A stretch of DNA of 624 nucleotides from Escherichia coli. Its GTDB lineage: Bacteria > Pseudomonadota > Gammaproteobacteria > Enterobacterales > Enterobacteriaceae. The position numbers and the translations under genes were made by a program. The stretch lies in the NCBI RefSeq assembly GCF_003334385.1, contig NZ_QOWN01000159.1, one strand, 5' to 3'. How positions within the stretch are numbered: the first letter of the stretch is position 1; the number at the start of each line of letters is the position of its first letter. Of the stretch, positions 1-624 are shown piece after piece. Below the pieces are notes generated by a model. The model saw nothing but the letters and a program-made list of their open reading frames with translations, was not told where the DNA came from and searched no databases.

Positions 1-624
1 AACGCGAGGCATCGTCTTAACGAGGCACCGAGGCGTCGCATTCTTCAGATGGTTCAACCCTTAAGTTAGCGCTTATGAGCAACACCTCCGCCCCTTCCGG
101 GGTATCCTGCAGGCGGATGCGTTCACAGGTTACGACAGGTTGTTCAGTGCAGAACGTGAAGGTGGTGCACTGACAGAAGTTGCGTGCTGGGCCCATGCCC
201 GGCGAAAAATCCACGATGTATACATCAGCAGCAAAAGTGCGACGGCAGAAGAAGCCCTGAAGCGAATCAGTGAACTGTACGCCATCGAGGATGAAATACG
301 GGGATTACCGGAGTCAGAGCGTCTTGCCGTCAGGCAGCAGCGAAGCAAAGTGTTACTGACGTCGCTGCATGAATGGATGGTGGAGAAGAATGGTACGCTG
401 TCGAAAAAATCCAGACTGGGCGAAGCGTTCAGCTATGTACTGAATCAGTGGGATGCCCTCTGTTATTACAGTGATGACGGTCTGGCGGAGGCGGATAATA
501 ATGCTGCGGAAAGAGCGCTTCGTGCAGTCTGTCTCGGAAAGAAAAACTCTTATGGCCTTTGTCAAATATTGAGCCCAAAAAGACCTTACGCAGCTCCGGG
601 AGCTTCGTTATATCGCGGATTAAA
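1..624 (+). mobile_element. IS66-family insertion sequence, internal portion only (no terminal inverted repeats or element boundaries visible in this window)
   Basis: The window is dominated by the IS66-type transposase coding sequence. No GTAAGCG-type IS66 terminus is found on either strand, so the element ends, if present, lie outside the window, or the copy is a truncated remnant. Confidence 0.65.
65..622 (+). CDS. IS66-family transposase (TnpC/ORF3-type, DDE_Tnp_IS66-like), partial internal fragment; open at the 3' window edge; possibly a degraded copy
   Basis: Frame 2 is open from the codon after TAA(62-64) to the window end. Translation: VSAYEQHLRPFRGILQADAFTGYDRLFSAEREGGALTEVACWAHARRKIHDVYISSKSATAEEALKRISELYAIEDEIRGLPESERLAVRQQRSKVLLTSLHEWMVEKNGTLSKKSRLGEAFSYVLNQWDALCYYSDDGLAEADNNAAERALRAVCLGKKNSYGLCQILSPKRPYAAPGASLYRGL. 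Family-typical motifs: LQADAFTGY (107-133), CWAHARRKI (185-211), ALKRISELYAIE.EIRG (254-304), DNNAAERALR (494-523), LGKKN (533-547). Codon usage is CTG/GCG-rich, typical of enterobacterial coding DNA. Family assignment is from memory of IS66 transposase consensus; no search was run. Homology is convincing from about 80 to about 547 and uncertain beyond. Confidence 0.85.

Follow-up and report, generated by a model that had tools for sequence, protein, structure and literature searches.

A probable nested insertion-sequence scar in Escherichia coli: an internal fragment of ISEc23 tnpC lying between IS186 and ISEc45

The window (the whole stretch of 624 nucleotides of Escherichia coli DNA that has been analysed) is very probably the scar of nested insertion sequences, in which the transposase gene tnpC of an ISEc23 copy has been cut by ISEc45 and then by IS186, leaving an inactive fragment. 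The identities of the pieces, their boundaries, and the parts of the gene that are missing have been established by alignment (Table 1), and from these we infer the order of the events and the arrival of IS186 by simple transposition. On F-type plasmids and in E. coli islands, insertion sequences are often nested in this way. The pieces of ISEc23, IS186, and ISEc45 correspond, as judged by sequence identities of 99.8–100%, to named and annotated elements, and to that extent the finding appears to be already known. Its value lies in the annotation: an open frame with a strong match to a transposase domain has turned out, after the boundaries were checked, to be a pseudogene fragment and not a gene.

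Table 1. Parts of the 624-nt window, with their coordinates, strands, and the evidence for each assignment.
Feature	Position	Strand	Evidence
IS186 right (3') end, non-coding tail 3' of the transposase stop	1–77	+	100% identity to IS186 copies
IS186 23-bp terminal inverted repeat CAACCCTTAAGTTAGCGCTTATG, containing the frame-opening TAA 62–64	55–77	+	reverse complement at the other IS186 end
ISEc23 (IS66 family) tnpC internal fragment, codons E319–N475 of 537, pseudogene piece	77–547	+	100% identical to L003 5001–5471
LQADAFTGY block, TnpC 329–337	107–133	+	position in translation
CWAHARRK block, TnpC 355–362, inside the PF03050 match	185–208	+	position in translation
DNNAAERALR block, TnpC 458–467	494–523	+	position in translation
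LGKKN	533–547	+	position in translation
CT dinucleotide core, ISEc23/ISEc45 junction	547–548	.	same CT at the other ISEc45 end
ISEc45 (IS110 family) last 76 nt, 3' of the transposase, non-coding	549–624	-	100% identical to L003 5473–5548
ISEc45 subterminal inverted repeat TATGGCCTTT	551–560	-	matching repeat TATGACCTTT at the other end

The coding signal has been found in frame 2 of the plus strand, where a six-frame stop count over the 624-nt window has given a single stop (TAA, 62–64) followed by 186 open codons (65–624), compared with 6–10 stops in each of the remaining five frames. As the first-pass annotation had supposed, this frame is missing from the list of open reading frames because it does not stop before the window ends. 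A Pfam search of the frame-2 translation has returned DDE_Tnp_IS66 (PF03050) with an i-E value of 4.2e-48 over residues 4–163, where a hit to roughly residues 5–160 had been predicted, and NCBIfam NF033517 (transpos_IS66) has matched residues 4–164 with an E value of 3.6e-50. The IS66-family signal is far above chance. The PF03050 match is nevertheless partial, with model positions 119–274 of 284 being covered, and the NF033517 score of 171.1 bits falls below the curated cut-off of 180 because the fragment is truncated, not because it is divergent; intact ISEc23 TnpC reaches 448.9 bits. The three conserved blocks named beforehand (LQAD, CWAHARRK, and DNNAAERALR) have all been located at the positions given in Table 1. 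CWAHARRK is a signature of the IS66 family that lies between the second D and the E of the catalytic triad. In the DDE triad, the second Asp is presumably D332 in LQAD and the catalytic Glu presumably E463 in AAERALR, and the first catalytic Asp is presumably situated at about residue 265 (HTDDTP), upstream of the IS186 cut and hence absent from the fragment. A sequence search for a solved structure of IS66 TnpC has found none, and a search of the open literature for the IS66 DDE residues has found nothing usable.

The element to which the fragment belongs has been identified by megablast against 5,426 complete E. coli genomes. Positions 77–624 were matched, not 1–624, and the identity was 99.5–99.8% to coding sequences that are named by PGAP as 'IS66-like element ISEc23 family transposase'. 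This tnpC is annotated by PGAP on chromosomes of E. coli as well as on F-type plasmids. Over the same 77–624, the window is 100% identical to plasmid pSCU-107-1 (NZ_CP053385.1, referred to as L003) and 99.8% identical to a second record (L001). Both carry an ISEc23-family transposase pseudogene in the PGAP annotation; next to it lie, in this order, an IS110-like ISEc45 transposase in the opposite direction and an IS66 C-terminal remnant, and the end of the pseudogene CDS in L001 (3471) corresponds to window position 547. When the two IS66 pieces are rejoined, a sequence is obtained that is intact in thousands of records. As a reference for the intact ISEc23 tnpC, we have used NZ_CP033635.1 (L004, 1748–3361), which encodes 537 aa with the Pfam domains LZ_Tnp_IS66 (60–130), zf-IS66 (138–182), DDE_Tnp_IS66 (196–486), and DDE_Tnp_IS66_C (494–530). 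In L001, L003, and L004, the matching tnpC is preceded by tnpA and tnpB in the order tnpA-tnpB-tnpC, which lies outside the window. The terminal inverted repeats and the 8-bp target duplication that mark an IS66-family element would likewise be situated beyond the window. Window 77–547 differs from the intact copy of NZ_CP033635.1 by a few bases and shares its frame, motifs, and Pfam family, but it comprises codons 319–475 of the 537 only, the upstream part being replaced by IS186. The full architecture of an IS66 TnpC is accordingly not found in the fragment, which consists of residues 319–475 and lacks the leucine zipper, the zinc finger, the first 118 positions of the catalytic profile, and the C-terminal domain.

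Pfam, NCBIfam, and the DNA identity of 99.8–100% to ISEc23-family coding sequences thus confirm the first-pass annotation, which had proposed an IS66-family TnpC core in plus-strand frame 2 at about 65–547. The true IS66 homology spans 77–547 (E319–N475); the codons within 65–76 (VSAY) come from the IS186 terminal repeat, and those beyond 547 are read from ISEc45. The IS66 sequence at 77–547 is, however, an internal piece of 157 codons (29%) of the 537-codon tnpC and not a gene. Nor does it account for essentially all of the window, as the IS186 end at 1–77 and the ISEc45 end at 549–624 together make up about 25% of it.

At the right boundary, the end coordinate proposed earlier, 547, has proved to coincide precisely with the end of the last codon of ISEc23. 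In L004, where no ISEc45 is inserted, the target has the sequence AAAAACTTTATGTTC, and the ISEc45 junctions read AAAAA-CT|CTTATGGCC ... ATACCAT-CT|TTATGTTC. The CT core is found at both junctions, and ISEc45 therefore starts at window position 549, with the core at 547–548. With the CT core included once, ISEc45 has a length of 1,446 bp (L003 5473–6918), and its insertion is antisense, between tnpC codons N475 and F476. The ISEc45 transposase is encoded outside the window on the minus strand (377 aa, L003 5724–6857) and scores 280 bits on NCBIfam NF033542, 'IS110 family RNA-guided transposase'. A BLAST alignment of the window to the intact ISEc23 copy at 99.2% over 77–561 includes a spurious 14-nt extension into ISEc45. 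This overrun (window 533–575 vs L004 3157–3185) is due to a resemblance between the ISEc45 end, CTCTTATGGCCTTTG, and the target sequence that it has displaced, CTTTATGTTCTTTG. The ISEc45 target is itself partly palindromic (AAAGAA...TTCTTT).

An intact, functional IS66-family transposase gene extending past the window would also leave the frame open to the window end and give a strong Pfam match. Its left part is contradicted by the stop at 62–64 and by 1–77, which is IS186 and not IS66 sequence, and its right part by the departure of the translation from TnpC after 547, where the DNA is that of ISEc45. Past N475, the translation continues as SYGLCQILSPKRPY... and bears no relation to the FMFFGSDHGGERG... 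of intact TnpC, and within the fragment the match extends over model positions 119–274 of 284 only. This reading has already been refuted by the boundary alignments, and we assign it practically no chance of being correct. The missing in-window stop is no sign of a transposase that continues and is accidental: the frame reads by chance into ISEc45 and would meet a stop 51 codons after N475.

At the left boundary, window 1–77 has been found to be 100% identical to IS186 in the complete plasmid pMTY14664_IncFII (L002, 5001–5077) and in the contigs L005 (240–164) and L006 (499–423). The IS186 copy is named by PGAP as IS4-like, IS421 family; in L002 its transposase, with a score of 133 bits on NCBIfam transpos_IS4_1, extends to 4906 and the element itself to 5077. 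The reverse complement of the terminal repeat, CATAAGCGCTAACTTAAGGGTTG, forms the opposite end of the same element in L002 (3738–3760) and in a further record (L011). Native ISEc23 at the left junction reads ...CACCCGG|AGCAACACCT..., and IS186 is therefore placed between codons P318 and E319. Base G77 can be assigned to IS186 or to ISEc23, and in the alignment to intact L004 tnpC, E319 occupies 77–79 and N475 occupies 545–547.

A close counterpart of this junction has been observed in L002 and in a second complete plasmid, H27, in which an IS66 relative, by estimate ~93% identical to ISEc23, carries IS186 at the homologous position and with unchanged orientation; a BLAST value of 95.7% over window 1–207 includes the identical IS186 end. 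In L002, IS66 fragments flank IS186 on both sides, and a direct repeat of 10–11 bp, GGCAACACCT, is present, so a genuine IS186 transposition occurs at this homologous site. IS186 has been described to insert at hot spots and to produce a 12-bp duplication at lon (PMC3861542), which the 10–11 bp duplication of L002 fits. The IS186 target in the window, GGAGCAACACCT, shows a weaker G-run/C-run match than the three other copies GGGGATAATTCC, GGGGGTAAAACC, and GGGGTAAACCCCC. Three human-gut metagenome contigs (L005–L007) are 100% identical to window 55–624 and continue inside the repeat with the other IS186 end, that is, in the opposite orientation to the window. This opposite-orientation junction is absent from the complete E. 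coli genomes. Taken together, the window, L002 and H27, and L005–L007 suggest repeated, independent IS186 insertions at the codon 318/319 site, and they point to this position of IS66-family tnpC as a recurrent IS186 insertion site. Partial matches to 1–125 in complete E. coli genomes have been considered and set aside as an unrelated prophage copy of IS186, in which a GC-rich target resembles the flank by chance.

The far side of IS186, where a target duplication and the 5' portion of ISEc23 would be expected, lies outside the window. The junction may thus also be read as the product of an IS186-mediated deletion or of recombination between IS186 copies, in which case the 5' two-thirds of ISEc23 would not be found beyond IS186. 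IS186 is indeed multi-copy: in E. coli genomes with at least one match to window 1–110, the median number of matching places is 3, nearly all of them being IS186 ends. L005 and L006 join the junction to chromosomal IS186 flanks beside genes with Pfam matches to Nucleos_tra2_C and HOK_GEF. Such a linkage could be a true rearrangement or a repeat collapse during assembly. The left flanks of L005 and L006, however, carry their own typical IS186 targets, which suggests assembly collapse, and at the homologous site L002 shows a simple insertion, flanked by a target duplication and by IS66 sequence at either end. We therefore regard a deletion or recombination as unlikely. The IS186 flanks of the two contigs differ from each other (L005 1–163, Nucleos_tra2_C; L006 1–422, HOK_GEF), and they probably reflect repeat collapse and not a real linkage. 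They presumably represent the nupC and hokE IS186 sites of E. coli K-12, which we take them to match.

The ends of the window have a further regularity, with 77 nt of the IS186 repeat on the left (1–77) and 76–77 nt of the ISEc45 repeat on the right (548–624). Such ends would be expected of a de Bruijn contig assembled from short reads (k about 77) that spans the unique DNA from one repeat to the next. The window probably represents one such contig in its entirety, and this would explain both its odd length and the frame that is open at the right end. The same k=77 pattern of a repeat-bounded contig would be expected if the junction were an assembly artefact, in which IS186 had been joined to a wrong partner or the wrong way round. 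The complete 624 bases have not been found in any record of the 5,426 complete E. coli genomes, PLSDB, the GTDB representative genomes, or the JGI metagenomes, and the three metagenome contigs show the opposite orientation. The IS186-ISEc23 junction of the window has likewise not been found in complete E. coli genomes or PLSDB plasmids, and its exact pattern has given 0 matches in genome and metagenome contigs. An artefact is nonetheless very improbable in our judgement: every k-mer in a contig of this kind is derived from reads, positions 1–54 occur specifically in the IS186 right end, and the same orientation is present at the homologous site in two complete plasmids. For the orientation of IS186, the window itself and the related L002 and H27 plasmids are the only support, and the identity of 77–547 is unchanged either way.

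In the proposed history of the window as a nested scar, an ISEc23 copy (tnpA-tnpB-tnpC) would first have been struck by ISEc45, a site-specific element of the IS110 family. Its antisense insertion between N475 and F476 would have severed the C-terminal domain from the catalytic domain. A later insertion of IS186 between P318 and E319 would then have separated the zipper, the zinc finger, and the early part of the DDE domain, and codons 319–475 would have been left between the two insertions together with the LQAD, CWAHARRK, and DNNAAERALR blocks. Of the complete E. coli records, 337 have the ISEc23::ISEc45 junction but lack IS186 there, and we therefore infer that the IS186 insertion is the later one. 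The fragment lacks a start codon of its own, the DNA-binding domains, the presumed first Asp, and the C-terminal domain, and therefore does not encode an active transposase.

Metagenome gene callers have predicted a protein of 183 aa starting from TTG 140. We have considered expression of the fragment and rejected it as improbable from the bases around this start, which is the only in-frame one used by the callers and has no spaced Shine-Dalgarno sequence before it. A scan of the window for promoters and terminators has given no more than is obtained with shuffles: a single weak promoter-like site, located within the coding fragment, and no terminator. With Rfam, searched at E≤1 with the window and the whole ISEc45 region, only a chance snoRNA match (E 0.36) and nothing for ISEc45 has been found. 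The minus-strand open reading frames of 65–72 aa are taken as shadows of the plus-strand coding frame.

The position of ISEc45 in the window is shared by other copies of this element. At eight loci (L001, L003, L007–L010, L012, and L013) with at least four types of IS66 flank, ISEc45 follows the LGKKN codons in every case, with its codon position and its antisense orientation unchanged. The hosts include an ISEc43-family gene, which over its upstream 400 nt shares only 78% identity with ISEc23. The junctions share only the 2-nt core (CT, or TT in the target), with no conventional target duplication, and a sampled ranking suggests that nearly all ISEc45 copies in complete E. coli genomes lie in IS66-family genes. 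Roughly 550 E. coli records contain copies of ISEc45. The element ISEc21, also of the IS110 family, targets conserved codons of IS3-family transposase genes via a seekRNA (Siddiquee et al., 2024, PMC11187229). ISEc45 resembles it in being orientation-specific, in having only a 2-nt core, and in residing in a conserved coding block of the transposase gene of another insertion sequence, but its target is IS66-family tnpC, whereas that of ISEc21 is found in IS3-family genes. The main text of PMC11187229 makes no mention of IS66, and in its supplements ISEc45 appears solely among the transposase sequences and in an identity matrix.

ISEc45 has a long non-coding region 3' of the transposase and subterminal repeats, a layout that is IS1111-like. 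In this region of 251 nt, a closed fold of 171 nt (element 1198–1368, z -2.3) has been found, which corresponds to L003 5551–5721 (minus strand). Two bases separate its end from the ISEc45 portion present in the window, so that the window supplies just the junction and the terminal repeat. Copies with the flank GAACATAA have CATAT in an internal-loop segment of this domain, and those with the flank GAACACGT have CACGT there. The flank carries CATAA in the ISEc23-type target and CACGT in the ISEc43-type target, and the loop (CATAT/CACGT) matches the flank (CATAA/CACGT) in most loci, L009 and L013 being imperfect. A scan of genome contigs with a conserved 31-mer of the ISEc45 non-coding region, aimed at ISEc45 in other species, has given 0 matches. 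On sequence grounds, the 3' non-coding domain is a candidate seekRNA or bridge-RNA guide, and the covariation of loop and flank may, by analogy, follow the seekRNA/bridge-RNA logic of the IS1111 and IS110 elements.

We have combined these observations into a broader proposal, for which we see about even chances. ISEc45 would be an RNA-guided element of IS110/IS1111 type that specifically parasitises IS66-family transposase genes at the conserved codons LG(K/R)KN|(F/Y)xFFGS, the 547/549 junction of the window being one example. A guide in its 3' non-coding region would have been naturally retargeted between ISEc23-type and ISEc43-type genes, and codon 318/319 would be a recurrent site at which IS186 inserts in two orientations. 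If this is true, ISEc45 is the second natural case, after ISEc21, of an IS110-type element homing into the transposase of another IS family, and it provides a natural pair of guide and target variants for study. L009 and L012 represent an orthologous chromosomal locus beside a PfkB kinase gene, at which different ISEc45 variants have been observed. The identities to the L003 copy are 97.8% in one strain and 99.8% in the other, and their guide-like segments differ, which suggests gene conversion or replacement between ISEc45 copies at this locus.
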